From a bacterium (lineage in GTDB: Bacteria; Patescibacteriota; Patescibacteriia; JACPHY01): a stretch of 64,000 nt of DNA. The stretch lies in contig JAUSKM010000015.1 in assembly GCA_030646955.1 (NCBI GenBank), positions 285-64,284 on the forward strand. Reading direction: 5' to 3'. The position numbers were made by a program, and so were the translations under genes. The notes under the pieces are model-generated. The model was given only the letters and a program-made list of their open reading frames with translations. It had not been told where the DNA came from and ran no database searches. This document shows, piece by piece, positions 484-60,311 of the stretch. Within the stretch, counting starts at the first letter, position 1, and every line of letters begins with the position of its first letter.

Positions 484-544
484 AGTCATCCAGTGTACCA
501 CGATGTTGCACTCACCCTTTTCCCGCAACTCCCACCCCCTCTAT

Positions 545-571
545 CTCCCTCCTCCCAACGGGAGGGGGAGG
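545..571. repeat. Short G/C-tract hairpin element (family G), intergenic
   Basis: ctccctcctcccaacgggagggggagg: a C-tract arm and a G-tract arm form an inverted repeat. Same style as the elements at 14805, 21676, 44254 and 56235. Confidence 0.6.
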
Positions 572-608
572 ACCGGACTTCTGATCCCTCCCCTCCTGTG
601 CCCCACCC

Positions 609-3225: not shown

Positions 3226-5157
3226 TCACCGCTTGAGCACGGCGATGTAGGCCTCCGGGGGGAGGTCAACACGGCCGGTGGCGCGCATGGCTTTCTTGCC
3301 TTTCTTCTGCTTCTCCAGGAGCTTCTTCTTGCGCGTAACGTCGCCGCCGTAGAGACCGGCAGTGACGTCCTTGCGGAGCGGCGAGATGCGGGCGCTGGCG
3401 ACAATCTTGCCACCGATCGCCGCCTGAATGCGCACCTCAAACTGGTGGCGCGGGATCACGTCCTTGAGCCGCTCGACGATCCGCCGCCCCACCTGCTGCG
3501 CTTCGTCCTCGTACACAATTGTCGCGAGCGATTCCTCTGGTTCGTCCACAACAAAAATGTCGAGGCGCCGCACGTTCGCCTCGCGGTGCTCGGAAATTTC
3601 GTAATTCATGGACGCGTACCCCTGGGAAACACTCTTGAGCCGATCATAAAAATCCACCAGCACCTTCGCAAGCGGCAGCTCGTACTTCAGGAGCGCGCGC
3701 CGTTGCCCCTCGATGCCGCCGGCAAGGTACTCCGTGGTGCGGTAGGTGCCGCGGTACTCCTGGCAGAGCTGCATGAGCCCGCCCACGTACTGCTCTGGCG
3801 TCACGATGTCCATGCGCACCCACGGCTCCTCAATTGCCGCGATGGACGACGGGTCCGGCAGCTCCTGCGGCGAACGGATGACTTCTCGCGCGCTGCTGTC
3901 CGCTTGGTGTTGCCGGCGCACCCAGTATGCAACACTCGGCACCGTCACCACCACGTCCATGTTGTGCTCGCGGATAAGCCGCTCCCGGAACACGTCCAGG
4001 TGGAGGAGGCCCAAGAATCCGCAGCGGAACCCCACGCCCAGTGCCTGCGAATGCTCCGGCTCCGCGACAAGCGCAGCATCGTTGAGGCGTAGCTGATCAA
4101 TGGCATCACGGAGCTGTTCCGTTTCATCCGAGTTCTTGGGGAACACGCCAGCGAACACCATGGGCCGCACGTCCTTGTACCCGGGGAGCGGCGCGGTTGC
4201 CGCGTACTTCGCGCCCGTCATAGTATCGCCAACGCGCACGCTTCGGATGTCCTTGAGGCCCGTCACGATGTATCCGATCTCCCCCGGCCCCACCTCGTCC
4301 GTCGCATAGAGCTTGGGGTTAAACGATCCCACCTCGCTGGCCTCTACCACCGTACCGGTGGTGAAGAATTTGAGTTTATCACCGCGCGCAACCGATCCGT
4401 CCACCACGCGCACATACGCGATGACGCCCCGAAAATCGTCGTACACAGAATCAAAAATGAGTGCGCGCAATCTCCGATCCCCCACCTCATCTTGAGGGGG
4501 GGGCGTCCGCACGGGTGCCGGTACCCGCTCCACCACCGCGTCGAGCAACATCGCAACGCCCTCGCCCGTCTTTCCGGAGACGGCAAGAATCTCCTCACGC
4601 GCGCATCCCAACAGCTCCATGATTTCCTGCGCCGTGCGCTCAACGTCCGCCGCCGGCAGATCAATTTTGTTGATCGCCGGAATAATGACGAGGTCCTGCT
4701 CCATCGCCAAGTACAGGTTCGCAATCGTCTGCGCCTGCACACCCTGCGTCGCATCTACGAGCAGGATTGCTCCCTCCACTGCCGCAAGCGAACGCGAGAC
4801 CTCGTACGTGAAGTCCACATGCCCGGGCGTGTCGATGAGGTGGAATATGTACTCCTCCTGATGATCCCCCACCTCCCGCTCGTCTGCGTCCGCCGGAGCG
4901 CGGAGGGAGGAGGGGCGAGGGGGGGTGGGCGTCCGCATCGTTCCGCCATGCGCGCCCAGCGTCCATCGCATGCGGACTGGCGCCAGCTTGATCGTAATCC
5001 CCCGCTCCTGCTCCAGGTCCATCTGGTCCAGCGTTTGCTGCTTCATGTCCCGGCTACTCACCGTTCCCGTGAGCTCCAACATCCGGTCCGCCAGCGTGGA
5101 TTTGCCGTGGTCAATGTGGGCGATGATGCAAAAATTGCGAATGGATGATGATTCCAT
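3226..5157 (-). CDS. lepA: Elongation factor 4 (LepA)
   Basis: MESSSIRNFCIIAHIDHGKSTLADRML, DTPGHVDF and NKIDLP GTPase motifs, with full-length LepA-like order to the C-terminus. Start trimmed from 5394 to the ATG at 5157. It contains an extra segment of about 30 aa before DTPGH (see findings). Confidence 0.95.
   Translation of the reverse strand: MESSSIRNFCIIAHIDHGKSTLADRMLELTGTVSSRDMKQQTLDQMDLEQERGITIKLAPVRMRWTLGAHGGTMRTPTPPRPSSLRAPADADEREVGDHQEEYIFHLIDTPGHVDFTYEVSRSLAAVEGAILLVDATQGVQAQTIANLYLAMEQDLVIIPAINKIDLPAADVERTAQEIMELLGCAREEILAVSGKTGEGVAMLLDAVVERVPAPVRTPPPQDEVGDRRLRALIFDSVYDDFRGVIAYVRVVDGSVARGDKLKFFTTGTVVEASEVGSFNPKLYATDEVGPGEIGYIVTGLKDIRSVRVGDTMTGAKYAATAPLPGYKDVRPMVFAGVFPKNSDETEQLRDAIDQLRLNDAALVAEPEHSQALGVGFRCGFLGLLHLDVFRERLIREHNMDVVVTVPSVAYWVRRQHQADSSAREVIRSPQELPDPSSIAAIEEPWVRMDIVTPEQYVGGLMQLCQEYRGTYRTTEYLAGGIEGQRRALLKYELPLAKVLVDFYDRLKSVSQGYASMNYEISEHREANVRRLDIFVVDEPEESLATIVYEDEAQQVGRRIVERLKDVIPRHQFEVRIQAAIGGKIVASARISPLRKDVTAGLYGGDVTRKKKLLEKQKKGKKAMRATGRVDLPPEAYIAVLKR
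4866..4930. repeat. G/C-tract element inside lepA
   Basis: cccccacctcccgc...gcggagggaggaggggcgagggggggtgggc. Translated in the lepA frame as RTPTPPRPSSLRAPADADEREVGD. Confidence 0.6.
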
Positions 5158-7422: not shown

Positions 7423-7815
7423 TCAATCATCAACGCGCGTATTGTTTCGTGTATCGCCGAGTACTCCGAGCGCCGCTGCTGCCATGAACAAACCAAAATC
7501 GCGCACGGCGAGATCCCCGCGTGCCACGGCAGCGAGAATGGTCAAAAGGTGAAGCGCGACAACCGCGGCAACGATACGCACTCGCCACCCCACCACCAGC
7601 AACACGCCGAGGAGCACCTCCGCCACACCCACCACGCGCAGGAACTGCACGGGATCCATCGGCAACAATCCGATCATCCACGGCGGAACAAATCCCAGCC
7701 ACGACACGGTATCTGCAATCTTGCCATATCCAAAGATGAGCAGCACTGCACCCAACCCCAAACGCAACAGCAATGCCGCAGCGCTGGGGCCCGTAAAACG
7801 AGAAAGCATCCTCAT
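7423..7815 (-). CDS. DoxX-family membrane protein
   Basis: MRMLSRFTGPSAAALLLRLGLGAVLLIFGYGKI...VAEVLLGVLLVVGWRVR: about 4 TM segments with DoxX-like composition. The track start at 7980 runs through a repeat unit, so the start was trimmed to the ATG at 7815. Confidence 0.7.
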   Translation of the reverse strand: MRMLSRFTGPSAAALLLRLGLGAVLLIFGYGKIADTVSWLGFVPPWMIGLLPMDPVQFLRVVGVAEVLLGVLLVVGWRVRIVAAVVALHLLTILAAVARGDLAVRDFGLFMAAAALGVLGDTRNNTRVDD

Positions 7816-7837
7816 ACTTTGACAATAAAATTGGTGC

Positions 7838-7868
7838 GTGTGAGATTGCTTCGCATGCTCGCAATGAC
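7838..7868. repeat. Single family-T repeat unit (TTGC/GCAA type)
   Basis: gtgtgagattgcttcgcatgctcgcaatgac. Its reverse complement is gtcattgcgagcatgcgaagcaatctcacac. Confidence 0.8.
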
Positions 7869-7924
7869 AATACTTAGGAATAAGTGGACTTAACATTTTC
7901 GACACCGTTTTCAAACACGGTCTC

Positions 7925-9205: not shown

Positions 9206-9286
9206 TCAAGTCCGTTTTTCTCTCGTGCACAAACGCAACAGAAACGCCGCGATCTCGGAGCCCGTAAAGCGAAAAAACATCCTCAT
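9206..9286 (-). pseudogene. Duplicated, truncated doxX 5' end
   Basis: ATG at 9286 reads MRMFFRFTGSEIAAFLLRLCTREKRT*, compared with the doxX N-terminus MRMLSRFTGPSAAALLLRLG. Roughly 70 nt (9230-9300) matches 7761-7830 at an estimated 80 percent by eye, including the upstream leader. Confidence 0.55.
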
Positions 9287-9414
9287 ACTCTGACAATCAT
9301 CTTCGTCACCGCGTCCTGAAATACGCGAAACGCCTTCCGCCACTCTTTCTTGTGCGTGTATTGATCGTCATTGCTGACACGTACGCAGTACTGACACCCA
9401 CACCAATGATACCA

Positions 9415-9852
9415 TCAGTGTGCCTTCGGGTACGCGCAGTTTACCATCCACTGCACCCCGAACCGATCCCGAACACTCCCGTAGTAGTCACCCCATGGCT
9501 GGTCTGCAATATCCATCTCCACCGTGCCGCCGTCTGCAAGCGCATGGAAGATGCGATCCGCCTCCTCCTTGCTGTCGGGATGAATGGAAATGTACGCGTT
9601 ATTTCCCTGCACCAACTTCTGCCCAAGCGACGGCAGCGTGTCCGAAGCCATGAGCTTATCGTCGCCAACTGGAAGGCAAATGTGCATCATCCCGTTCTCC
9701 TCCTCTTTGGGAATGTGTACGCCTTCCATCGGCATGTCCTTGAACCGCACCCTGGAGCTGAACTCCCCGCCAAAGATGGAACGGTAAAACGTGAACGCCT
9801 CCTCTGCATTCCCGGCAAAGTTGAGATACGTGTTGAGTTTTATATTCTCCAT
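9415..9852 (-). CDS. VOC/glyoxalase-fold protein (PhnB-like)
   Basis: MENIKLNTYLNFAGNAEEAFTFYRSIFGG...MHICLPVGDDKLMASD...IADQPWGDYYGSVRDRFGVQWMV is the typical PhnB/VOC pattern. Start trimmed from 9981 (which runs through repeats) to the ATG at 9852. Confidence 0.8.
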   Translation of the reverse strand: MENIKLNTYLNFAGNAEEAFTFYRSIFGGEFSSRVRFKDMPMEGVHIPKEEENGMMHICLPVGDDKLMASDTLPSLGQKLVQGNNAYISIHPDSKEEADRIFHALADGGTVEMDIADQPWGDYYGSVRDRFGVQWMVNCAYPKAH

Positions 9853-9862
9853 TTTTCCATCT

Positions 9863-9942
9863 GTCATTTCGAACGCAGCGAGAAATCTCACACGATCCAA
9901 TAACTGCCGACACGCGAGATTGCTTCGCGGACTCGCAATGAC
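9863..9942. repeat. Inverted pair of family-T units (TTTC type + TTGC type)
   Basis: gtcatttcgaacgcagcgagaaatctcacacg (9863-9894) and cacgcgagattgcttcgcggactcgcaatgac (9911-9942). Confidence 0.8.
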
Positions 9943-9977
9943 AGTACGTATGTGATGCCGTGAAATTGCAATCGTTA

Positions 9978-11541: not shown

Positions 11542-12378
11542 TCAATCACCTGAGAGAAACTCGGCCCATGCCGCACACTCCTCGAGGTCGTCGGTATCGA
11601 TGAGGCGGTCGCAATCGTTGTCGACGTGATCATTGCACACCTCTTCATTGCACGCGGGATCGCAGGTGAGCAACGCTACAGGAGCATCACACTCCCAAAA
11701 CCCCTCCTGCAACAATCCGTCGTTCTCCCATATGCAGATCACGCCGATCCAATCACCGTCGTCCGTCACCCCGTCGCAGTCGTTGTCGACGCCATCGCAG
11801 ATTTCCATGGGACATGCTGCGGTCGAATCGAACACACAATCGCCATCATCCCAATCCACCATGCCATCGCAGTCGTTGTCGGCACGATCATGACACAACT
11901 CGACATTCTCCTCACAGGACGGACCTCCAGCGATAGGGAGCCCGCATGAGAGCGTTGTGTGTGGCACGCCCTCTGTACCGGGAGCCCCGCACGTACGCAG
12001 GCCTGCATTCACTGCATCCCAGTACTCCATGTAACACGCCTGCTCTTCCCAAGGACCATTGTCCGTGATACCGTCGCAGTCGTTATCGATACTATCGCAG
12101 CGCTCCTCAGAGCACTCGGTCGCGTCATCGCCGGAATCATCATCCGCGCTGACGGCATCATCGTCGGATGTGTCGCCGTCGTCGTTTGCGGTTGCTTGGG
12201 AGTCATCGTCGGTGATGACTCCATCGTCGTCCGCTGCCATCGTATCGTCATCGACGGAAGTTGCGACGCTATCATCGTCTCCAACCGGAAAACTTCCTTC
12301 CGGCATATCGCTCCCGCACGCCTGCACTGCCGTTATGAGCGCCGTGATCATGGAAAGAACCAACCATACGGTACGCAT
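11542..12378 (-). CDS. Asp/Cys-rich lipoprotein with four DNDCDG-type putative metal-binding repeats
   Basis: MRTVWLVLSMITALITAVQACG has a signal peptide plus lipobox. An acidic low-complexity region follows, then CDSIDNDCDGITD, CHDRADNDCDGMVD, CDGVDNDCDGVTD and CNDHVDNDCDRLID. There is a strong SD (aaggaggtgcgg) upstream of the ATG at 12378. Confidence 0.75.
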   Translation of the reverse strand: MRTVWLVLSMITALITAVQACGSDMPEGSFPVGDDDSVATSVDDDTMAADDDGVITDDDSQATANDDGDTSDDDAVSADDDSGDDATECSEERCDSIDNDCDGITDNGPWEEQACYMEYWDAVNAGLRTCGAPGTEGVPHTTLSCGLPIAGGPSCEENVELCHDRADNDCDGMVDWDDGDCVFDSTAACPMEICDGVDNDCDGVTDDGDWIGVICIWENDGLLQEGFWECDAPVALLTCDPACNEEVCNDHVDNDCDRLIDTDDLEECAAWAEFLSGD

Positions 12379-12404
12379 CCGCACCTCCTTCTTTGTTCCC
12401 CGCA

Positions 12405-12433
12405 AATATACATCCAAGCAGCCTCTCCGTCAA
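12405..12433 (-). promoter_or_regulatory. Sigma-70-like promoter for the lipoprotein gene
   Basis: Minus strand: TTGACG (12433-12428), a 17-nt spacer, then TATATT (12410-12405). This is about 27 nt upstream of the start codon. Confidence 0.5.
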
Positions 12434-14368: not shown

Positions 14369-16171
14369 CTACTCCATAATGGGCGCGGCTGCGGTGCCTC
14401 GTGCCGGTTCGCTCGCTGCGATGACGCGGGAAGAAGCGAACACCTCCAGGGCGGCGTCAACGGTGGTGTCGCCGGTGGCGGGGCGGCAGGCGCGGTCGAG
14501 CTCTTCAAAGTGCTCCACCGCAATCGCGACGGGATCCAGGTGGAGGGGCGTGCCGACGATGCGTGCGATGGCGCTGGTGAGCGGCTCTATGATGCCGGGC
14601 TGCCGCACTTTCTCCGCGTGGAGCTTGTAGCGGAAGCCGATGGTGAGCGTCCCGTCTGCAATGCGTTGCGGGCGACCGCCTTCCAGGAGGTACGGGATGG
14701 AGCGGTTGACGTCCGCGAGATCGCGGATGATGTGGTGCCATTGTTGCTGGACTTTCGAGAGCGCCTCGGTGGCGCTCTGGATGACGGTGGATGTTGGAAG
14801 TTGCTCCCTCCTCCCGGCGGAAGGGGGAGGAATAAAACGCACCCCCTCTGACTCCCCCTCTTGAAGAGGGGGAGGAACCGGATCGGATGTATCTGTTACC
14901 GTCGTTGGGAGTTTGATGCTTGCAGGGGTACGAGCGCGCGAGGCGTGTTGGGGGGTACGGGCTGCACCGCCGGTGGTGGCGGGTGGAGCATCGTCGTCAT
15001 TGCTCCGCGATGCGTCTCGCTGAGACGAGGCGAGCTGCGCGGGATTCATTTTGCCTGGTGATGCGCTCGCTGCGGGCGCTGCGGGAACGAATGGGGAGCG
15101 CGCGAGGAGCGTAAGGACGGCAACCTCGAGGAGGAAGAACGGACGGTCTGCACGACCGATGCGATCCAGGAGTTCCGTGAACATGCGAAGCGCGAACACC
15201 TGTGCCGTCGCAACGGCACCTTGCTGGGCGGCAGCGCGTGCGGCGCTGCGCAGCTCGTTGATGATGTCGCGACAAAACGCATCCGCATCGCATCCCTCGG
15301 CTGATGCAGCATCGAGCGTGGCCAGGGCCAATGCGGTGTCGCCGGCACCAACCGCGCGAAGCAGCGTCTGGACATGCACCATGTTTGATTGCGGGAGCAC
15401 GAGCGCGGCAACATCGGCCGTCACTCGCTTCCCGCCCACCGCCATGAGCTGCCCCAACAGGGATTCTGCGTCACGCACGGAGCCGTCTGCCGCGCGGACT
15501 ACCTGCGCGAGCACCTCGTCATCCACGGCAACATCCTCTACCCCTGCAAGCATCCGGAGCCGCTCCGTGAGCGTCCCATCCCCCACGCGCCGGAACGTAA
15601 AATGCTGGCACCGTGACGTGATCGTCTCCGGCACCTTCTGCATTTCCGTTGTCGCAAGGATGAAGTGGACGTGCTCTGGCGGCTCCTCCAGCGTCTTGAG
15701 GAGCGCATTAAAGGACGCCGTCGAGAGCATGTGCACCTCGTCAATGATGTACACCTTCTTTGCTGCAACTGCGGGGGCGATACGCACCGCCTCGATGATG
15801 TACTCACGCACCTTCTCCACCTGCGTGTTGGATGCCGCATCAATCTCCACGACATCCATGCAACGTCCTGCGGTAATTTCCTCGCACCGGATGCAGGCGT
15901 TACAAGGCACGGGAAGTGTTTGCTTCGACCGGTGCTTCGCGCGAGTTTCTTCGTCGCTCCGCTCCTCGGAATGACGAGGAGCGAGGCAATTCACCGCCTT
16001 CGCCAGGAGCCGCGCGGTGGTGGTCTTTCCAACGCCGCGCGGACCGGAGAAAAGGTACGCATGCGCAACACGACCCGCCGCGATAGCCGCGACGAGCGTG
16101 CGCGTGACATGCTCCTGCCCCACGACGTCCTCAAACGTCTGCGGGCGATGCTTACGATACAGTACGGGCAT
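14369..16171 (-). CDS. dnaX: DNA polymerase III subunit gamma/tau
   Basis: MPVLYRKHRPQTFEDVVGQEHV, Walker A GPRGVGKTT, DEVHML, TSRCQ. Start trimmed to the ATG at 16171. It carries two repeat-derived segments (features at 14805 and 15941). Confidence 0.9.
   Translation of the reverse strand: MPVLYRKHRPQTFEDVVGQEHVTRTLVAAIAAGRVAHAYLFSGPRGVGKTTTARLLAKAVNCLAPRHSEERSDEETRAKHRSKQTLPVPCNACIRCEEITAGRCMDVVEIDAASNTQVEKVREYIIEAVRIAPAVAAKKVYIIDEVHMLSTASFNALLKTLEEPPEHVHFILATTEMQKVPETITSRCQHFTFRRVGDGTLTERLRMLAGVEDVAVDDEVLAQVVRAADGSVRDAESLLGQLMAVGGKRVTADVAALVLPQSNMVHVQTLLRAVGAGDTALALATLDAASAEGCDADAFCRDIINELRSAARAAAQQGAVATAQVFALRMFTELLDRIGRADRPFFLLEVAVLTLLARSPFVPAAPAASASPGKMNPAQLASSQRDASRSNDDDAPPATTGGAARTPQHASRARTPASIKLPTTVTDTSDPVPPPLQEGESEGVRFIPPPSAGRREQLPTSTVIQSATEALSKVQQQWHHIIRDLADVNRSIPYLLEGGRPQRIADGTLTIGFRYKLHAEKVRQPGIIEPLTSAIARIVGTPLHLDPVAIAVEHFEELDRACRPATGDTTVDAALEVFASSRVIAASEPARGTAAAPIME
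14805..14874. repeat. Two adjacent G/C-tract hairpins inside the dnaX 3' half
   Basis: ctccctcctcccggcggaagggggagga and ctccccctcttgaagagggggag. Translated as PPLQEGESEGVRFIPPPSAGRRE. Confidence 0.65.
15941..15975. repeat. Family-T repeat unit inside the dnaX zinc-module region
   Basis: The reverse complement gtcattccgaggagcggagcgacgaagaaactcgcg is near-identical to the intergenic unit gtcattgcgaggagcgaagcgacgaagcaatcccgg at 24924-24961. Translated as RHSEERSDEETRA. Confidence 0.75.
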
Positions 16172-20866: not shown

Positions 20867-22306
20867 CTATGCCCCCCCTCGAACCTTCGGCCCGTCTTGC
20901 GTATCTTCAACGGTGTACCCCAGCGCGGCAATCTGCGCGCGGAGACGATCAGCGCGTGCCCAATCCTTCTCGGTGCGTGCGTGCTCTCGCGCACGCACGA
21001 GCTCCAGCACCTCCGGCGGAACGACGAATGGTTTACCCAAAACGTCGCGCAGCCCTAGTGCAAATACCTCATCCGCATACGCAACGAACGCGCTCTGCTC
21101 CACGGTTCGCTCGCTCTTCTTGAGGCATTCCCAGAGCAACGCGAGCGCTTTTGGCGTGTCGAGATCGTCGTTCATGGCATCCAAGAACCGCTCGGTGGTC
21201 TTGTGCACCTTCACCTTCAGCTGCGCGCTCACGCGTACCGGCGGCTTGGGGAATTCGCGGCACTGTGTTCGCAGATGCTCCAGCGCATGCTGCGCAGCGG
21301 TGAGGGATTCCCAGGTAAAGTTGAGCGGCGAACGGTAGTGCGCGCCCAGCACCAAATACCGATATGCAAGCGGATCAATCCCCCGCTCAATCAACTGCGT
21401 GATGGTAATGAGGTTCCCCTCGGACTTCCCCATGCGCTTGCCGTCCACGGTCAGGAATGCGCCATGGAGCCAATACGCTGCGAGCGGCTTCCCGTACGCC
21501 GCTTCGGACTGCGCAATCTCGTTCGTGTGATGGACGGGAATGTGATCAATCCCGCCCGTGTGGATATCAAACGGCTGCCCCAACAGCTCACGGCTCATGA
21601 CGGAGCACTCCAAATGCCACCCGGGGAACCCTGTCCCCCACGGCGATTCCCACTCCTGCTGACGTTTCCTCTGTTCCCCCCCCTCCCGCTGGAAGGGGGG
21701 GCTGGGGGGGGTAGGGTTTGAAAGTTTCCACAGCGCGAAATCGTGCGGCAATCGCTTCTCGCCCACCGCAACGCGCATACCGCCCGCCTTCTCCTCCAGC
21801 TTCTGACCGCGGAACGCCGTGCCGTAGGACGCGAGCTTCGCGGTGTCAAAATACACACCGTCCGATGTCGTATAGGTGTACCCCTGCTTCTCCAAACGCT
21901 CTACCAGCGCAATCTGCTGCGCGATGTACTCCGTTGCCTTGGGCATCGCGTCTGGTGTGAGGATGTGCAGCCGCTCAAGGTCCTGCAGGAATGCCTGCGT
22001 GTAAAAATCCGCCAGTTCCCGCGCAGACTGCTTGCGCTGCGCAGCTGCGCGTTCCAATTTATCCTCGCCGGTATCCGCGTCGCCCACGAGATGTCCTACG
22101 TCCGTAATGTTCATGACGTGCTTCACCCGCAACCCATTGAGCAGGAGCGTCCGCCGAAGCACATCCGCAAACACGTACGACCGCAAATTCCCAACGTGCG
22201 CAAAATCGTACACCGTCGGCCCGCACGTGTACACGCGAACGCTCCGACCGCGCAGCGGCCGGAACGGTTCGATCGTCTTGGTGAGGGAGTTATGGAGCGC
22301 GAGCAT
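20867..22306 (-). CDS. cysS: Cysteine--tRNA ligase
   Basis: VYTCGPTVYDFAHVGNLRSY gives the HIGH-type motif, GWHLECS the zinc site and KRMGKS the KMSKS-type motif. Start trimmed to the ATG at 22306. It contains a repeat-derived insert (feature at 21676). Confidence 0.92.
   Translation of the reverse strand: MLALHNSLTKTIEPFRPLRGRSVRVYTCGPTVYDFAHVGNLRSYVFADVLRRTLLLNGLRVKHVMNITDVGHLVGDADTGEDKLERAAAQRKQSARELADFYTQAFLQDLERLHILTPDAMPKATEYIAQQIALVERLEKQGYTYTTSDGVYFDTAKLASYGTAFRGQKLEEKAGGMRVAVGEKRLPHDFALWKLSNPTPPSPPFQREGGEQRKRQQEWESPWGTGFPGWHLECSVMSRELLGQPFDIHTGGIDHIPVHHTNEIAQSEAAYGKPLAAYWLHGAFLTVDGKRMGKSEGNLITITQLIERGIDPLAYRYLVLGAHYRSPLNFTWESLTAAQHALEHLRTQCREFPKPPVRVSAQLKVKVHKTTERFLDAMNDDLDTPKALALLWECLKKSERTVEQSAFVAYADEVFALGLRDVLGKPFVVPPEVLELVRAREHARTEKDWARADRLRAQIAALGYTVEDTQDGPKVRGGA
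21676..21716. repeat. G/C-tract element inside cysS
   Basis: ccccccccctcccgctggaagggggggctggggggggtaggg. Translated as NPTPPSPPFQREGGEQ. Near-identical to the element in rfbD at 56235. Confidence 0.75.
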
Positions 22307-23927: not shown

Positions 23928-24176
23928 TCCTAGCTGCTCCACGCGAGATCCCTGGACGATCCTCGGAATGACGAGGAAAGGAAACTCTGTATGACGGGAG
24001 ATTAAAAGGGGGACCTCTGCAAAAGTTGTGTTATTGCGAGCCGAACCCGTGAAGCGTGGCAATCCCGGCGTTAGGTTGACCGAGATTGCGGAGCCTGTCC
24101 CGAGTACGCGATGGATCCGCGTGTGTGACTCCTCACCATGACACCGTAGGGTTTTTTGGAGGTCTCAAGGGACAAT

Positions 24177-24803: not shown

Positions 24804-24961
24804 GCCGGAATTGCCACGTCGAGGACTCCTCGCAATGACAATACCGGTGTCATTGCGAGTCCGCGAAGCAATCCCGGCCATGTGCAGCACTGTGCTGCGT
24901 CGCCATCGCAAGAGTCCTGCTATGGCCGGGATTGCTTCGTCGCTTCGCTCCTCGCAATGAC
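24804..24961. repeat. Three family-T units, two of which form a long hairpin
   Basis: gccggaattgccacgtcgaggactcctcgcaatgac (24804-24839) faces gtcattgcgagtccgcgaagcaatcccggcc (24849-24879). A third, inverted unit ggccgggattgcttcgtcgcttcgctcctcgcaatgac lies at 24924-24961. Confidence 0.85.
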
Positions 24962-24998
24962 AACGTGGGCGTGACGAGGGGAATGACGGCTTCACGTA

Positions 24999-26239: not shown

Positions 26240-26310
26240 ACAGTCATACATGGCCACCTCTCCCCCTCTAGCTCCCCCTCCCCCCATGAGTACGTGCGGG
26301 GAGGGGGAGG
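26240..26310 (+). repeat. About 72-bp G/C-tract element, long form, copy A
   Basis: acagtcatacatggccacctctccccctctagctccccctccccccatgagtacgtgcggggagggggagg aligns along its length with 45806-45878 and with the reverse complement of 60164-60235. Confidence 0.85.
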
Positions 26311-26417
26311 ACAAGAACATCGGAGTCGCTGGAGACACTTTTCGCATCCGCCACAAATGGAAGCGCCAGCGCGATACCAAGCATCGCGAGGATCAACACC
26401 TTCGTACGACGTTGCAT
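26268..26417 (-). CDS. Possible 49-aa secreted peptide in the dnaK-dnaJ spacer
   Basis: MQRRTKVLILAMLGIALALPFVADAKSVSSDSDVLVLPLPARTHGGRGS has a signal-peptide-like N-terminus, but the last third is encoded by the repeat element. Speculative. Confidence 0.2.
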   Translation of the reverse strand: MQRRTKVLILAMLGIALALPFVADAKSVSSDSDVLVLPLPARTHGGRGS

Positions 26418-29776: not shown

Positions 29777-29857
29777 TCCTTTGCGAGTCCGTGAGGGCGC
29801 AGCAATCTCTCTGCCTGATTGGCCGGGATTACCACGTCGCGGACTCCTCGCAATGAC
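29777..29857. repeat. Two family-T units (one degenerate, one inverted)
   Basis: cctttgcgagtccgtgagggcgcagcaatctctc and ggccgggattaccacgtcgcggactcctcgcaatgac. Confidence 0.7.
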
Positions 29858-29943
29858 ACAAACATACGAAATTCTACCTCTCAAAAAGAACGAGACCCGC
29901 ACTTTCGTACGGGTCTCAGGTAATACTCCTCGAAGTTTGCGGC

Positions 29944-43830: not shown

Positions 43831-43872
43831 CAACAAAACACCCACCCCAGCAATGGGGTGGGTGTTTTGTTG
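43831..43872. terminator. Bidirectional rho-independent terminator (tRNA-Lys / murG)
   Basis: caacaaaacacccacccc agcaat ggggtgggtgttttgttg is an 18-bp perfect stem, followed by gttttt. Confidence 0.85.
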
Positions 43873-43884
43873 GTTTTTCGCCCG

Positions 43885-44952
43885 TCACTGCGCTGCTTGC
43901 ATGACCACGCGCGCAAGCGTGGCGGCGGCGTTGTCGGGAAACATGGTGGCGATGGAACGACCGAGTTTGGCGCGACGGTTGGCATCCTCGAGAAGCGCAT
44001 GGATGCGTTGTGTGAAGACGCCGGGCGCGACGAGGGCCCGCGAATTCCAAACCTCCGCAGCACCGCGCTCGTTGAGTTGCTGCGCGTTGTCTTCCTGGTG
44101 AGTGGATGGCATGGGCACCAGCACCGTCGGTTTACCCAGGCACCCCAGCTCCGCGATCGTCCCCATGCCCGCACGACTCACCACAAGATCCGCAGCAGCG
44201 AGCGCGGGAATCATATCGTCGGCGAGAAACTCAAATTGTCGATAGGATCCGGCCCACTCCCCCTTCCCAGCGGGAGTGGGGGGAACATTGCCCTGCTTCC
44301 CTTTCCCCGTCACATGAATCACGTCGGCAATCGCCGTCAGCTCGGGCAATGCGGCCCAGACAAGGTGGTTGAGCGCCATTGCGCCGGTGCCACCGCCAAG
44401 AATGAGGAGTACGTGTCGATTTCCGGAGAATCCAAAATGCCGCTGTGCTTCGCGCACATCCGCCACGCACGCATCGCGCACGGCGGCACGCACCGGCACG
44501 CCGATGCCCTCAGCGCCAAATGTCGCCGTCCGCGCGGACGAAAACCGCGCCACAAGCGTGTTGGCCAATGATGGACGCGCGTCCAGTTGGTGGATGACGA
44601 TCGGGATGCGCAGCACGCGCGCCGCAAGCATCACCGGCACCTGCACGTATGACCCCGCGCCCACCACCGTATCTGGCCGCTCCCGACGCAGAAACGCAAG
44701 TGCGCGCACGAACGCCCATGCAATTGCAAACGCATCCACGATATTCCGCCCATCCAGGTACCGTCGCAGCTTGCCTGCCGGAAACGCGATGAACCGGATC
44801 CCGTCGCGCTCCACCAACACCCGCTCCGGCCCCCGCCGCGTCCCAATCCACATCATCACCGCCCGCGGCCGCACATGCCGAATCTCCTCCGCGACAGCCA
44901 AGAGCGGGGTCACCGATCCCAATGTTCCGCCGCCGGTGAAGAGGATGGTCAT
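43885..44952 (-). CDS. murG: UDP-GlcNAc--lipid I GlcNAc transferase MurG
   Basis: MTILFTGGGTLGSVTPLLAVAEE glycine-rich loop, a GT28 two-domain layout, and C-terminal RAGMGTIAEL. Confidence 0.9.
   Translation of the reverse strand: MTILFTGGGTLGSVTPLLAVAEEIRHVRPRAVMMWIGTRRGPERVLVERDGIRFIAFPAGKLRRYLDGRNIVDAFAIAWAFVRALAFLRRERPDTVVGAGSYVQVPVMLAARVLRIPIVIHQLDARPSLANTLVARFSSARTATFGAEGIGVPVRAAVRDACVADVREAQRHFGFSGNRHVLLILGGGTGAMALNHLVWAALPELTAIADVIHVTGKGKQGNVPPTPAGKGEWAGSYRQFEFLADDMIPALAAADLVVSRAGMGTIAELGCLGKPTVLVPMPSTHQEDNAQQLNERGAAEVWNSRALVAPGVFTQRIHALLEDANRRAKLGRSIATMFPDNAAATLARVVMQAAQ
44254..44284. repeat. G/C-tract hairpin inside murG
   Basis: cccactccc ccttcccagc gggagtggg has a 9-bp perfect stem. 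Translated as PPTPAGKGEWAG. Confidence 0.6.
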
Positions 44953-45656: not shown

Positions 45657-45729
45657 AGTGCGCTCCTTGATGCTCGGTGCTCGGAATCTGGGCTCTTCGC
45701 CCTTTTCTGTCGCTCATGCTCTGTTTGAT

Positions 45730-45878
45730 CCCCTCCCTCCCCGCGCGTACTCGCGGGGGGAGGGAGGGTTAGGGAGGGAGAGGTGGGACGGAATGGCAAC
45801 ATGGTACAGCCCATCCATAGCCACCTCTCCCCCTCCTGCTCCCCCTCTCCCCACGAGTACGTGCGGGGAGGGGGAGGG
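45730..45878. repeat. Inverted pair of long G/C-tract elements (about 150-bp composite palindrome)
   Basis: 45730-45803 (cccctccctccccgcgcgtactcgcggggggagggaggg...) is in the same orientation as 60164-60235. 45806-45878 (acagcccatccatagccacctctccccctcctgctccccctctccccacgagtacgtgcggggagggggaggg) is in the opposite orientation. Confidence 0.85.
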
Positions 45879-45885
45879 TAAGGAG

Positions 45886-47022
45886 CTAGCGCCGATGCCG
45901 TGCCGCCGTGCCGCGCGTCCGGCTAAGGTTGAGCACGATACCAGCCGCACCCAGCGAGACCGCCAACGCGGTGCCGCCAGAGGAGACGAACGGCAGCGGC
46001 AAGCCCGTGAGCGGGAGCATGCCGACCATCGCGCCAATGTTCACGACGGACTGCACGCCCCACCACGCAGCGATGCCGACAAGCACGAGGCGGTCAAACT
46101 CATCTGTCGCATCCATGGCATTGCGCAGCACGCGCGCAATGACGTACGCAATCAGCGCGAGAAACGCGAGCGAGAAGATGAAACCGATTTCCTCGGCGAC
46201 AATCGCGAAGATGGAGTCCGAGATGACCTCCGGGAGGAACGCAAACTTCTGCCGCGAGTGCCCCAGGCCAACGCCAAACCATCCGCCCGATCCTACAGCG
46301 AGGAGCGCCTGGTTTACCTGATACCCGATGCCCTGGGGATCTAGCTCCGGGTGCAGGAACGCGGTGAGCCGCGCGACGCGGTACGGCGCGGCCGCGATGA
46401 GCGCAGTGAGCGCCGCGATGCCGCCCAACGCGAGGAGGCCGAGGTGGCGCAACTGCATCCCCCCCACGAACGCCATCGCCACGCCAATCGCCGCGATAAT
46501 CAGCATCGTACCGAGGTCTGGTTGGAGCCCGATGATGCCCAGTACGCCACCAAGAACGCCGAGGAACGGCAGGAATCCCCTCGCCCACGCCTTCGGATGG
46601 AACCACAACGGACGCCGCACCGTTGCCCACGACGCGAGCGCGAGGATGAGTCCAACTTTTGCAAGCTCTGCGGGCTGGAACGTCACGAAACCGATATCGA
46701 GCCAGCTCTGCGCCCCACCGCGCGTCACGCCGAGGCCCGGAATGAGCACCGCAATGAGGAGCACCACACTCCCTGCGAGCGCCCAGAGCCCGCACCGCTC
46801 CAGAACAGGCCGCCGCAGCCGCGCGGCGAGCACGAGGAGGACCGCGCCCGGGAGCACGCCGGACCAGAGCTGATGGACCAAGTAGTACGACCGCGAGCCG
46901 TACCGTTCGTACGCGAGCGGCGCAGAGACGGACGAGAGAAAAATGAGCCCCAGTGCCACGAGCAGCGCGACCGCAGCAAAGAACCGCGTGTCCGTCTCCT
47001 GGAGGAATCGCGGCATGCGCAT
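45886..47022 (-). CDS. ftsW: SEDS-family peptidoglycan polymerase FtsW/RodA
   Basis: 378 aa with about 10 TM segments. Motifs FQPAELAK, LQPDLGT and LPLTGLPLPFVSSGGT. Confidence 0.9.
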   Translation of the reverse strand: MRMPRFLQETDTRFFAAVALLVALGLIFLSSVSAPLAYERYGSRSYYLVHQLWSGVLPGAVLLVLAARLRRPVLERCGLWALAGSVVLLIAVLIPGLGVTRGGAQSWLDIGFVTFQPAELAKVGLILALASWATVRRPLWFHPKAWARGFLPFLGVLGGVLGIIGLQPDLGTMLIIAAIGVAMAFVGGMQLRHLGLLALGGIAALTALIAAAPYRVARLTAFLHPELDPQGIGYQVNQALLAVGSGGWFGVGLGHSRQKFAFLPEVISDSIFAIVAEEIGFIFSLAFLALIAYVIARVLRNAMDATDEFDRLVLVGIAAWWGVQSVVNIGAMVGMLPLTGLPLPFVSSGGTALAVSLGAAGIVLNLSRTRGTAARHRR

Positions 47023-48084: not shown

Positions 48085-48242
48085 CGTCACCTTCGAGCGA
48101 TACTTCACTTCCGTCATTTCGAGCGCAGCGAGAAATCTCACACGCAATACTCTATCGAACACGATACGGTTGACATGTACTGCTTACGAATGTTTCTCAA
48201 CCCCCACATCATGTGAGATTCCTCGGCCGACCTCGGAATGAC
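48085..48242. repeat. Family-T units upstream of mraY (one degenerate, one TTTC type, one inverted TTCC type)
   Basis: gtcatttcgagcgcagcgagaaatctcacacg (48113-48144) and tgtgagattcctcggccgacctcggaatgac (48212-48242). Confidence 0.8.
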
Positions 48243-48720
48243 GAGCAGAAGCATACCCCACCCCATTCATATTCCAGAGCAGCACGGTACCCACAAGCGC
48301 GGCGAATGCGAGGAGTACTGCGGCAGCGAGGAGGAACACAGATGCCGTGGCGGGCGCAGGCGCGTTGCGGGGCGTGAGACCAAATGCGAGCGCAATGTTG
48401 AATGCGATGAACGCCGAGCCCGTGCGAGCGATGCGCGCGAGATCATGCCATGAACCAAAGGCATCGATCCCAAACGTGGTAGTGTAATGCGTCACGAGCG
48501 ATGCCGCGTCCGGCACATTTGGCACCGCGAGCGCCGCAATCCATGCACCCGCGAGCAGTGCACCGGCCGCGACGGCCATCCAGCGCGTTTGCGAATTCGC
48601 GAGCAGTGGATGCGAAAACGCGCACACGCGCCGCACGCATGCACGCTGCACCCGCCCAACTGCCGTCCATAGCTCCCCCTCGCTCCGGGATGGAGCATCC
48701 GGGGAGATGCGGTCATCCAT
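48184..48720 (-). CDS. Hypothetical membrane protein (3 TM); C-terminal 20 aa encoded by a repeat unit
   Basis: MDDRISPD...[20 protein letters not shown]...[23 protein letters not shown]...[20 protein letters not shown]. Start uncertain. The tail is family-T sequence. Confidence 0.45.
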
Positions 48721-55697: not shown

Positions 55698-56600
55698 TCA
55701 CCGATGACCGAGGTACTCCGCAAGCGCCTGCTCCCATCCGCGCAAGGGTGGGAGCTTTGTCGTGCGGAGTACCGAGTGCGTGGGGCGTCTGGCAGCGCGC
55801 GGAAACTGCGACGCGGAGACGGGAACTAGCGTCCCACGCCACCCAGCGCACGTGAGCGCCTCCTGCGCAAAACGGTACCAGGTACACGCCCCGTCGTTCG
55901 TGCGATGATAGATGCCGCTCTCCGTAGTGCGCGCCACCAGATCCCGGGTTGCTTGCGCGAGGTCTGGCGCATACGTTGGCGATGCCCGCTCATCATCCAC
56001 CACTTCCAACCGATCGCTCGCCGCCGCTCGCTCGATAATCACGTCCACGAACGAACGCTTTCCGCCTGCCGACTGCGCCGCTGTACCAAAGAGCCGCGAG
56101 AGCCGGATGATGTGCCACTGCCATCCTGGATGCGCAGCCGCAACACGCTGCACCTCCTGCTCGCCCAGGAACTTTGACCGTCCATAGGCGGAGCAAGGAT
56201 CCGGTATCGCATCCTCGGCATATCCCGCTCCTATCCCCCCTCCCGCTGGGAGGGGGGGAAGGGGGGGGAGGTCCTGCAGCGCTCCAAACACATAATCCGT
56301 CGAATAGTGCACGAACGCCGCTCCAACAGCAGCGGCTGCATCTGCCAAATGCCCAACCGCGTATCCGTTCACCGCATCGGCAACGGCTTGCTCCTCCTCT
56401 GCGCGGTCCACCGCATTATACGCCGCCGCGTTGATGAGGATCTCCGGTGCAGCCGCCGCGATACGCGCCCGCACCTGCACCGCATTGGTGATGTCGAGAT
56501 TACTGCGATCCCACGCGATCACCTCGCAATCAGAAAACGCTCGGACGAGTGCGTGTCCGAGCATCCCCCTTGCACCCACAATGCAGACGCGCATACTCAT
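55698..56600 (-). CDS. rfbD: dTDP-4-dehydrorhamnose reductase
   Basis: VCIVGARGMLG Rossmann motif, STDYVF, YGRSKFLGE. It contains a repeat-derived insert (feature at 56235). Confidence 0.85.
   Translation of the reverse strand: MSMRVCIVGARGMLGHALVRAFSDCEVIAWDRSNLDITNAVQVRARIAAAAPEILINAAAYNAVDRAEEEQAVADAVNGYAVGHLADAAAAVGAAFVHYSTDYVFGALQDLPPLPPLPAGGGIGAGYAEDAIPDPCSAYGRSKFLGEQEVQRVAAAHPGWQWHIIRLSRLFGTAAQSAGGKRSFVDVIIERAAASDRLEVVDDERASPTYAPDLAQATRDLVARTTESGIYHRTNDGACTWYRFAQEALTCAGWRGTLVPVSASQFPRAARRPTHSVLRTTKLPPLRGWEQALAEYLGHR
56235..56271. repeat. G/C-tract element inside rfbD
   Basis: cccccctcccgctgggagggggggaaggggggggagg. Translated as DLPPLPPLPAGGGIG. It matches the cysS copy at 21676. Confidence 0.75.
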
Positions 56601-60071: not shown

Positions 60072-60163
60072 ACCGTCTCCATTCTCGCACACGAACGGCG
60101 CCAAAGCAACTCCTCAAAAAAGTAGGTTCTTCCGGCTTTCGTGTCGCCGAGTACGCTTCTTAT

Positions 60164-60235
60164 CCTCCCCCTCCCCGCACGTACTCGTGGGGGGAGGGGG
60201 AGCGAGAGGGGGAGGGGTGGCTATGGATGGGCTGT
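60164..60235 (-). repeat. About 72-bp G/C-tract element, long form, copy C
   Basis: The reverse complement acagcccatccatagccacccctccccctctcgctccccctccccccacgagtacgtgcggggagggggagg is nearly identical to 45806-45878. Confidence 0.85.
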
Positions 60236-60311
60236 GTGATCGTGCGATGCAGATGGGGCGACAACCGACAGGAAAGCCGGAAGAACCAAAAAAGTACGAC
60301 ATCGCGCCGCA

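Follow-up and report, generated by a model that had tools for sequence, protein, structure and literature searches.

The closest described counterparts of the element reported here are the Rickettsia palindromic elements (RPEs), repeats of ~105-150 bp that fall into ten families, often lie in frame in unrelated genes and are compatible with the folds of the encoded proteins (PMC10969869, PMC3184786, where the RPE work of Ogata et al. 2000, 2002 is summarised). Other small non-autonomous repeats, including the ERIC, BOX/RUP/SPRITE and Correia elements, sometimes end up as in-frame fusions with open reading frames (ORFs) (PMC3184786, PMC10969869). Here we describe a comparable case in a 64-kb stretch of DNA (64,000 nt, hereafter the window; positions 285 to 64,284 of contig JAUSKM010000015.1, assembly GCA_030646955.1) from an uncultured, Uhrbacteria-like bacterium of the Candidate Phyla Radiation (CPR), in which the lepA gene, encoding translation elongation factor 4 (EF4 or LepA), carries an in-frame insert of 105 nt in its GTPase (G) domain. 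We consider it likely that a dispersed hairpin repeat inserted in frame at this position and is translated as a 35-residue loop. The lepA case is real and RPE-like, and it lies in a recurrent insertion hot spot.

Like the RPEs, the repeat is a dispersed palindrome that occurs both between genes and in frame in unrelated housekeeping genes, with the ORFs kept and the fold accommodating the addition. An analogy with RPEs had been drawn in an earlier sequence-only reading of this DNA, and it is borne out, the same repeat being found in frame in several unrelated genes whose ORFs are kept. The systems also differ. Each RPE family has a conserved peptide, whereas the present repeat consists of C-tract/G-tract stem-loops of 28-65 nt that are read in several frames; its host, an Uhrbacteria-like member of the CPR, belongs to another phylum, and stop codons are excluded by composition alone. 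Size and the lack of a conserved peptide set it apart from RPE families 1-10 as these have been described.

The lepA gene occupies positions 3226..5157 on the minus strand, which holds most of the genes of this window (61% GC), and encodes a protein of 643 aa from an ATG at 5157. The product has the complete architecture of EF4, with a GTP_EFTU G domain bearing the G1-G4 motifs, domain II, EFG_C and LepA_C (precomputed Pfam: PF00009, PF03144, PF00679 and PF06421). It matches EF4 entries of the PDB down to E=6.6e-196, and its AlphaFold2 (AF2) fold agrees with this assignment. An identical protein, P0001, has been deposited as 'MAG: translation elongation factor 4 [bacterium]' (MAG, metagenome-assembled genome), encoded on a contig of 73 kb, and the best homologues all come from Candidatus Uhrbacteria or other Patescibacteria.

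Ahead of the DTPGH motif, the translated minus strand of 3226-5157 reads ...GITIKLAPVRMRW-TLGAHGGTMRTPTPPRPSSLRAPADADEREVGDHQ-EEYIFHLIDTPGHVDF, the reading after GITIKLAPVRMRW-TLGAHGGTMRTPTPPRPSSLRAPADADEREVGDHQ continuing as EEYIFHLIDTPGH; the stretch RTPTPPRPSSLR belongs to the insert region. The span from GITIK to DTPGH measures 61 aa, whereas the four nearest relatives (P0002-P0005, 69-77% identity), which all lack the insert, have 26 aa there and LepA of the E. coli type has 31 aa. None of the solved EF4 structures contains it. The Aquifex LepA (2ywe), for example, aligns to residues 1-66 and 102-642, its five residues standing where the present protein has 35. Comparing codons with L001 (GCA_030647005.1), the nearest relative, reveals the empty site, which reads ATG CGG TGG AAG GAG TAC there and ATG CGA TGG, 105 nt, ...CAG GAG GAG TAC here. 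The net insertion is therefore 105 nt (35 aa, residues 67-101) at 4858..4962 on the minus strand, with boundaries good to a few bases either way, and it lies eight residues ahead of DTPGH, at the tip of the β2-β3 hairpin.

The sequence-only reading had placed an insert of about 30 aa at 4866-4930, described its DNA as C-tract/G-tract in style and taken it for a repeat absorbed in frame. Retranslation agrees with the position ahead of DTPGH and with the protein as it had been read. The extent needs correction: because the empty-site comparison gives a net 105 nt at ~4858-4962, positions 4866-4930 are only the G/C-tract core. The tract style is evident in this core. It begins with a C-tract arm, CCCCCACCTCCC (4866..4877), which together with T4865 and the GCT at 4878-4880 makes up the family motif TCCCCCNCCTCCCGCT. 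A 27-nt loop follows (4878..4904), itself containing a small nested hairpin, TCCGC/GCGGA, and the core closes with two G-tracts, GGGAGGAGGGG then GAGGGGGGGTGGG (4905..4929; individually 4905-4915 and 4917-4929), which on the plus strand, the template for lepA, constitute a canonical G-quadruplex motif. Positions 4867-4877 pair with 4905-4915, 27 nt away, at 10 of 11 positions. The remainder of the insert, 4931..4962 on the minus strand, encodes TLGAHGGTMR. Since the element has almost no A/T, the core is without stop codons in all six frames; with stops excluded by composition, the ORF stays open whenever a copy adds a net length divisible by three. Absorption in frame without breaking the ORF is supported, but only ~43 of the 105 nt are recognisably repeat-derived.

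To what family would such a core belong? Throughout the window we find a nearly A/T-free stem-loop, in which a C-tract and a loop are followed by one or two G-tracts, with a unit of 28-65 nt. A short form has arms of 11-12 bp and a loop of 3-4 nt, and a long form spans ~60-94 nt around a 12-nt loop of the GAGTACG type. With hairpins defined by a C-rich arm (>=8 C in 11), >=10/11 pairs and a loop of <=40 nt, the window contains 10 clusters, two of them in lepA, where 30 dinucleotide shuffles average 0.03. MAFFT gave no consistent alignment of short and long copies together, and a covariance model was trained on six short copies only; it nevertheless recovers long copies outside the training set with E = 3.5e-4 to 9e-3. 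The intergenic members are a short copy at 543..574 (ig545), a long copy with the 12-nt GAGTACG-type loop at 26245..26317 (E=3.5e-4, outside the training set), two long copies in inverted orientation at 45729..45886 (45729-45786 and 45793-45886) and a long copy at 60155..60248. The same family, in both forms, is also present between genes in a second Uhrbacteria genome (L002:2097-2130 and 2220-2244). Ten canonical G-quadruplex motifs occur in the window and seven of them fall within the hairpin family, including that at 4905-4929; the sites at family copies are 4905-4929, 21695-21716, 56248-56268, 45755-45787, 60189-60217 and 515-556. In the three in-gene copies with a three-part structure, the G-rich strand is the template and not the mRNA.

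The hairpin family is not purely intergenic, and this is the main new point of the analysis. The sequence-only reading had regarded the repeats as an intergenic family; that description fails, with seven of the 12 copies lying within genes and five between them. The copy most closely related to the lepA core, and sharing its frame, lies in frame in cysS at 21674..21716 (minus) and encodes NPTPPSPPFQREGG. With it, CysRS gains 13 aa over its six nearest relatives (P0122-P0127), and the segment corresponds to a 16-aa gap against 8qhp. The gene for an RmlD-like reductase carries LPPLPPLPAGGGIG in frame at 56231..56272 (minus), a copy that corresponds to gaps of 2 + 12 aa (14 in total) against 3sc6. 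The dnaX linker holds two in-frame copies, VPPPLQEGESEG and IPPPSAGRRE, within 14802..14878 (minus; 14802-14833 and 14849-14878); one copy is missing from the DnaX of the nearest relative, and the protein is ~23 aa longer than in L001. A further copy, PPTPAGKGEW, lies within the reading frame of murG at 44255..44286 (minus), where comparison with 7d1i gives no clear gap and insertion relative to homologues is not demonstrated. One repeat is therefore found in frame in LepA (twice), DnaX (twice), CysRS and the RmlD-like protein as well as between genes, which is the behaviour of an RPE.

The in-gene copies are read in differing frames and so yield differing peptides. Their codons are unusual: proline is encoded by CCC or CCT in 25 of 28 cases within the in-gene elements against 247 of 770 in background genes (p=1e-9), and glycine by GGG or GGA in 13 of 15 against 476 of 1201 (p=3e-4). 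Because of this homopolymeric codon bias, we regard the Pro/Gly-rich peptides as dictated by the DNA tracts and not as selected at the level of the peptide.

How firmly the lepA core can be tied to these copies depends on the kind of evidence that is considered. On the coding strand the core shows the same order of parts as the CysRS, RmlD and long copies, namely C-tract 2, C-tract 1, loop and G-tract. The left arm and start of the loop, TCCCCCACCTCCCGCT, agree between lepA (4865-4880) and CysRS (21675-21690) at 15 of 16 bases, the single difference falling at the N of the pattern. Allowing at most two mismatches, the motif TCCCCCNCCTCCCGCT also occurs in RmlD, MurG and ig545 (6 found against 0.20 expected), and a double G-tract, with the second tract 1-3 nt after the first, is found in lepA, CysRS, RmlD and at 60192 (4 found against 0.00 expected). 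Once the 22 loop bases 4881-4902 are left out, the lepA core is ~80% identical to the CysRS copy over 43-46 nt; for comparison, the CysRS and RmlD copies agree at 35 of 41 positions. The two proteins read the element alike, as PTPP...REGG in LepA and PTPP...REVG in CysRS. When all 76-nt windows were scored against the insert, the best were the RmlD, 45714 and CysRS copies (z ~5). The core has the arms expected of the family, a C-rich arm of 11-14 nt and a complementary G-rich arm, but its loop of 27 nt departs from the 3-4 nt of the short form and the 12 nt of the long form.

Several results weigh against the insertion of a family copy in lepA, and we set them out together. A profile of the other copies gave no nhmmer match with E<10 at 4866-4930, the covariance model scored the lepA core at 9.2 bits (E=5.4), similar to generic terminator hairpins, and BLAST of the insert against the window returned nothing below E=0.075. 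Both motif patterns come from the lepA and CysRS copies, so that evidence is provided only by matches beyond these two. Neither the 27-nt loop nor the 32 nt at 4931-4962, together ~60 nt, has a match above chance in the window. In single-sequence folding as RNA and as DNA, the insert did not differ significantly from its own shuffles (z = -1.5 to +1.45), so hairpin stability is unusable as evidence for the lepA copy. No target-site duplication or terminal inverted repeat can be defined from the L001 empty site; ATGCG recurs 30 nt inside the insert and does not flank it. The 35-aa peptide was found by phmmer in no other protein among 1.84 billion representative proteins, the insert is known from a single assembly with no independent contig, and no transposase was found in the 64-kb window. 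The only phmmer match to the peptide, a Gram-positive surface-repeat protein, was judged spurious. A terminator scan returned nothing at the insert, and a scan of a genome collection, of which this MAG is not a member, for arms of the lepA type gave chance matches in unrelated GC-rich genomes. Family membership of the lepA core thus rests on shared motifs, layout, frame and unusual codons, and not on a profile score. In our judgement the 65-nt core most likely represents a family copy that has diverged or is composite.

To place the insertion in a wider context, we compared 119 LepA homologues. Between GITIK and DTPGH, 79 have 26-32 residues and 40 have 34-191, so that 34% carry an insert. The inserts of CPR LepA proteins are mutually unrelated in sequence, length and composition. 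Because the inserts of distant CPR members are unrelated in sequence, we regard the β2-β3 loop as a hot spot and not as a conserved segment, and the insert of this LepA, missing from its four nearest relatives and unrelated to the inserts of distant ones, is specific to its lineage. The DNA of such inserts is palindromic in many cases: among eight relatives, seven have inserts that fold into whole-length hairpins (z -3.6 to -10.5), with none of 200 shuffles as stable, whereas 32 control segments from the same genes have a mean z of 0.07 and a minimum of -1.44. For five of nine inserts (L005, L003, L016, L018 and L019), further copies were present in the organism's own locus (<=22 kb fetched); in L005, identical ATCCCGGCGAAAGCCGGGAT hairpins stand at two intergenic places.

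Other loops show a similar pattern. CPR LepA also varies in the linker that joins the G domain to domain II, a second such site. In CPR CysRS (P0121-P0240), the loop within DFALWK...PGWHxEC has minimal length in 69 of 117 proteins and an insert of 8-22 aa in ~44 of 117, and many of these inserts are repeat-like, for example HPELVEGS, SSPPYQGGE and RSFDSAQDD. On balance, we favour the view that across the CPR genome-specific hairpin repeats repeatedly settle in the same few loops of housekeeping proteins and are translated there, the loops in question being the LepA β2-β3 turn, the LepA G domain-domain II linker, the CysRS loop preceding KRQMEW and the DnaX zinc-module loop. Insertion might be directed to particular sites, for example hairpin-prone or stalled-replication ones, possibly by Y1 transposases; alternatively, structural tolerance alone might explain the recurrence. 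Our literature searches returned no paper describing LepA loop inserts or repeats that lie in frame in CPR proteins.

Some of the relatives offer further observations on these loops. The LepA of L006 (L006:734-1228, P0032) carries in the same loop a 165-aa in-frame insert that contains a PD-(D/E)XK domain (PF13366); it is flanked by 14-nt inverted repeats, and the gene that follows codes for a '23S rRNA intervening sequence' protein (PF05635). The DnaX of L002 has an in-frame hairpin of its own, CCCCGCACCACTTTT..AAAAGTGGTGCGGGG, encoding HPAPLLSEKWCGV, with two intergenic copies (5012-5046, 9398-9432 and 9809-9851). In the window itself, a second, unrelated repeat family (...GATTGCTTCGC..CTCGCAATGACA / TCCTCGGAATGACGAGGA) is found at 15960-15980, 7830-7869, 9862-9943, 23957-23977, 24804-24966, 29822-29858 and 48113-48247, and one of its copies is translated as PRHSEERSDEE in the zinc-module loop of DnaX, which is thereby 13 aa longer than in the nearest relative. 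A different insert, of ~30 aa, occupies this loop in L002.

The lepA gene contains a second, short hairpin, GATCCCCCACCTC-ATCTT-GAGGGGGGGG, at 4476..4506 (minus), which encodes RTPPPQDEVGD in the G domain-domain II linker and adds ~7 aa relative to the relatives and to 2ywe. Its arms are the outer arms of the long lepA insert. The 13-mer GATCCCCCACCTC occurs at just two sites in the window, 4476 and 4863, both in lepA, and the opposite arms of the two elements match through GGGCGTCCGCA. The two are either copies of one subfamily, or one seeded the other. This similarity speaks for local growth of a variable loop, by slippage, small duplications or intragenic copying, for instance from the short hairpin 387 nt away, with the resemblance to the family then being mere Pro/Gly low complexity in a genome of 61% GC. 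Local growth would also fit the variation of loop length across the CPR, the insignificant profile scores and the ~60 nt of the insert that are unique. Against this, proline and glycine are written in rare homopolymeric codons, a sign of constraint at the level of DNA; the 16-nt left arm matches, at 15 positions, a CysRS copy 17 kb away, with which the spacing of the double G-tract is also shared; the presumed source at 4476-4506 is itself an addition and a borderline member of the family (covariance model E=0.067); and the same-loop inserts of other lineages are clearly palindromic. Taken together, these points lead us to consider local growth unlikely and to retain the insertion of a dispersed repeat as the preferred explanation.

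Could the insert be an artefact, a chimeric join or mis-call in a lepA that in reality lacks it? Only one contig and a single protein record document the segment, the genome collection that we searched does not include the MAG, a scan of JGI metagenomes for the insert junction gave 0 matches, and G and C homopolymers are error-prone. However, the segment measures exactly 105 nt, preserves the frame and contains no stop; it occupies the one loop that is also extended in 34% of related LepA proteins, which derive from many independent assemblies; and several further genes of this contig contain the element in frame as well. We regard an artefact as extremely unlikely.

To determine how the insert relates to the EF4 fold, we built an AF2 model of LepA from 97 homologues (mean pLDDT 81, pTM 0.77). 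In the model, β2 comprises residues 61-66 and β3 residues 102-109, and residues 67-101 form coil with block-mean pLDDT of 46-58; the structure superposes on EF4 structures, including the ribosome-bound 5J8B, with a TM of ~0.8. The insert is thus mapped to the tip of the β2-β3 hairpin, where it is predicted to be a disordered surface loop compatible with the fold, EF4 being otherwise kept in the model. In Ras-like GTPases, the β2-β3 turn is the end of the interswitch hairpin and points away from the nucleotide, and the loop would accordingly lie away from both the nucleotide pocket and the ribosome interface. This protein retains every column that does not vary among the 97 LepA sequences, the G1-G4 motifs included. 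Because all GTPase motifs are intact, LepA most likely still works, with the insert as a tolerated passenger.

Length variation at this site has a precedent in EF-G, whose longer β2-β3 connection is a lineage-specific loop insertion in translational GTPases. The LepA inserts resemble it in their site, the turn of the interswitch hairpin, which tolerates variation in length. Unlike loops of the EF-G type, which are conserved and structured, the CPR LepA inserts are hypervariable, consist mostly of palindromic DNA and match genome-specific repeats. The same features bear on the possibility that the loop is adaptive, kept for a new interaction of EF4 with the CPR ribosome or a partner protein, the hairpin DNA having served only as raw material. 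A third of the homologues have the loop occupied, as such a role might predict. Yet the inserts differ between lineages in sequence, length and composition, the nearest relatives have none, AF2 assigns the insert no structure, and its composition tracks the DNA repeat and not a peptide motif, so we consider an adaptive role very unlikely.

Finally, the segment might be removed or skipped, as an intein, an intron or a translational bypass element. In yeast mitochondria, GC-rich hairpin elements are bypassed during translation, which lends the idea some plausibility. At 35 aa, however, the insert is far below the size of an intein, Rfam contains no intron or other RNA family that matches the lepA insert or the C-tract/G-tract repeats, and none of the in-gene copies breaks the frame or contains a stop, a restriction that would be needless if they were skipped. 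The probability of removal or skipping is, in our judgement, negligible.

We therefore favour a simple sequence of events for the insertion. One copy of the dispersed stem-loop repeat would have entered the codons of the LepA β2-β3 turn and would be translated as a 35-residue loop, Pro-rich at first and then acidic and Gly-rich, that extends in disordered form from the tip of the β-hairpin. The repeat may have spread by mobilisation of the kind known for repetitive extragenic palindromic (REP) sequences and MITEs (miniature transposable elements with inverted repeats), possibly through a Y1 transposase, or by template switching at hairpins. Surviving copies would be those of frame-keeping length in loops that tolerate extra residues, and the repeated use of the LepA loop across the CPR may reflect tolerance of inserts rather than targeting. 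In L018, a related Uhrbacteria genome whose LepA loop has a strong palindromic insert, a Y1 gene (IS200/RAYT-type, PF01797; L018:8494-9165) stands two genes upstream of lepA. The L018 repeat is not present in the flanks of this gene, and its product has no homologue in the window (tblastn E>0.08).

The comparison with REP sequences and MITEs is instructive in both directions. Like REP/REPIN elements, which are mobilised by RAYT transposases (Y1, IS200-like), the repeats are short, GC-rich, imperfect palindromes present in many copies and sometimes in inverted pairs (45729-45886); unlike REP sequences, which are extragenic by definition, 7 of the 12 copies lie in genes. Like bacterial MITEs, they are small non-autonomous repeats that end up in coding sequence. 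They are much shorter than typical MITEs, and the empty-site comparison defines no clear combination of terminal inverted repeats and target-site duplication. Where MITEs have been reported inside genes, moreover, the outcome is mostly gene disruption and not a longer loop.

Other repetitive features of the window are distinct from this family. A bidirectional terminator-like hairpin (AAAACACCCACCCC..GGGGTGGGTGTTTT) lies at 43836-43868 in the gap between murG and a tRNA gene, unlike the C-tract/G-tract family, which is free of T-runs. A 77-nt direct repeat (78% identity) is found at 7759-7835 and 9230-9306, at the starts of two adjacent minus-strand genes. Inside the gene at 11542-12417, a periodic repeat of the GTCGCAGTCGTTGTCGAC type spans 11608-12100, and thrombospondin type-3 repeats are faintly matched by the syntenic genes of L017 and L019.

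Behaviour of the RPE kind is now seen in a free-standing CPR lineage, with an element that is much shorter and whose composition guarantees an open frame. If our view of the CPR loops is correct, RPE-like loop evolution would be phylum-wide, a phenomenon without a CPR description in the literature searched, and it would account for many of the odd low-complexity loops and length outliers of CPR proteins. Such loops should not be taken as functional innovations, and alignments and phylogenies that run through them are unreliable. The loops in EF4, CysRS and DnaX also provide natural permissive sites, and the LepA hot spot offers a set of independent insertion events in which the tolerance of a protein to random peptide insertions can be studied. 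More broadly, these observations suggest that, in small genomes whose intergenic space is scarce, selfish hairpins may generally come to be read as loops of proteins.

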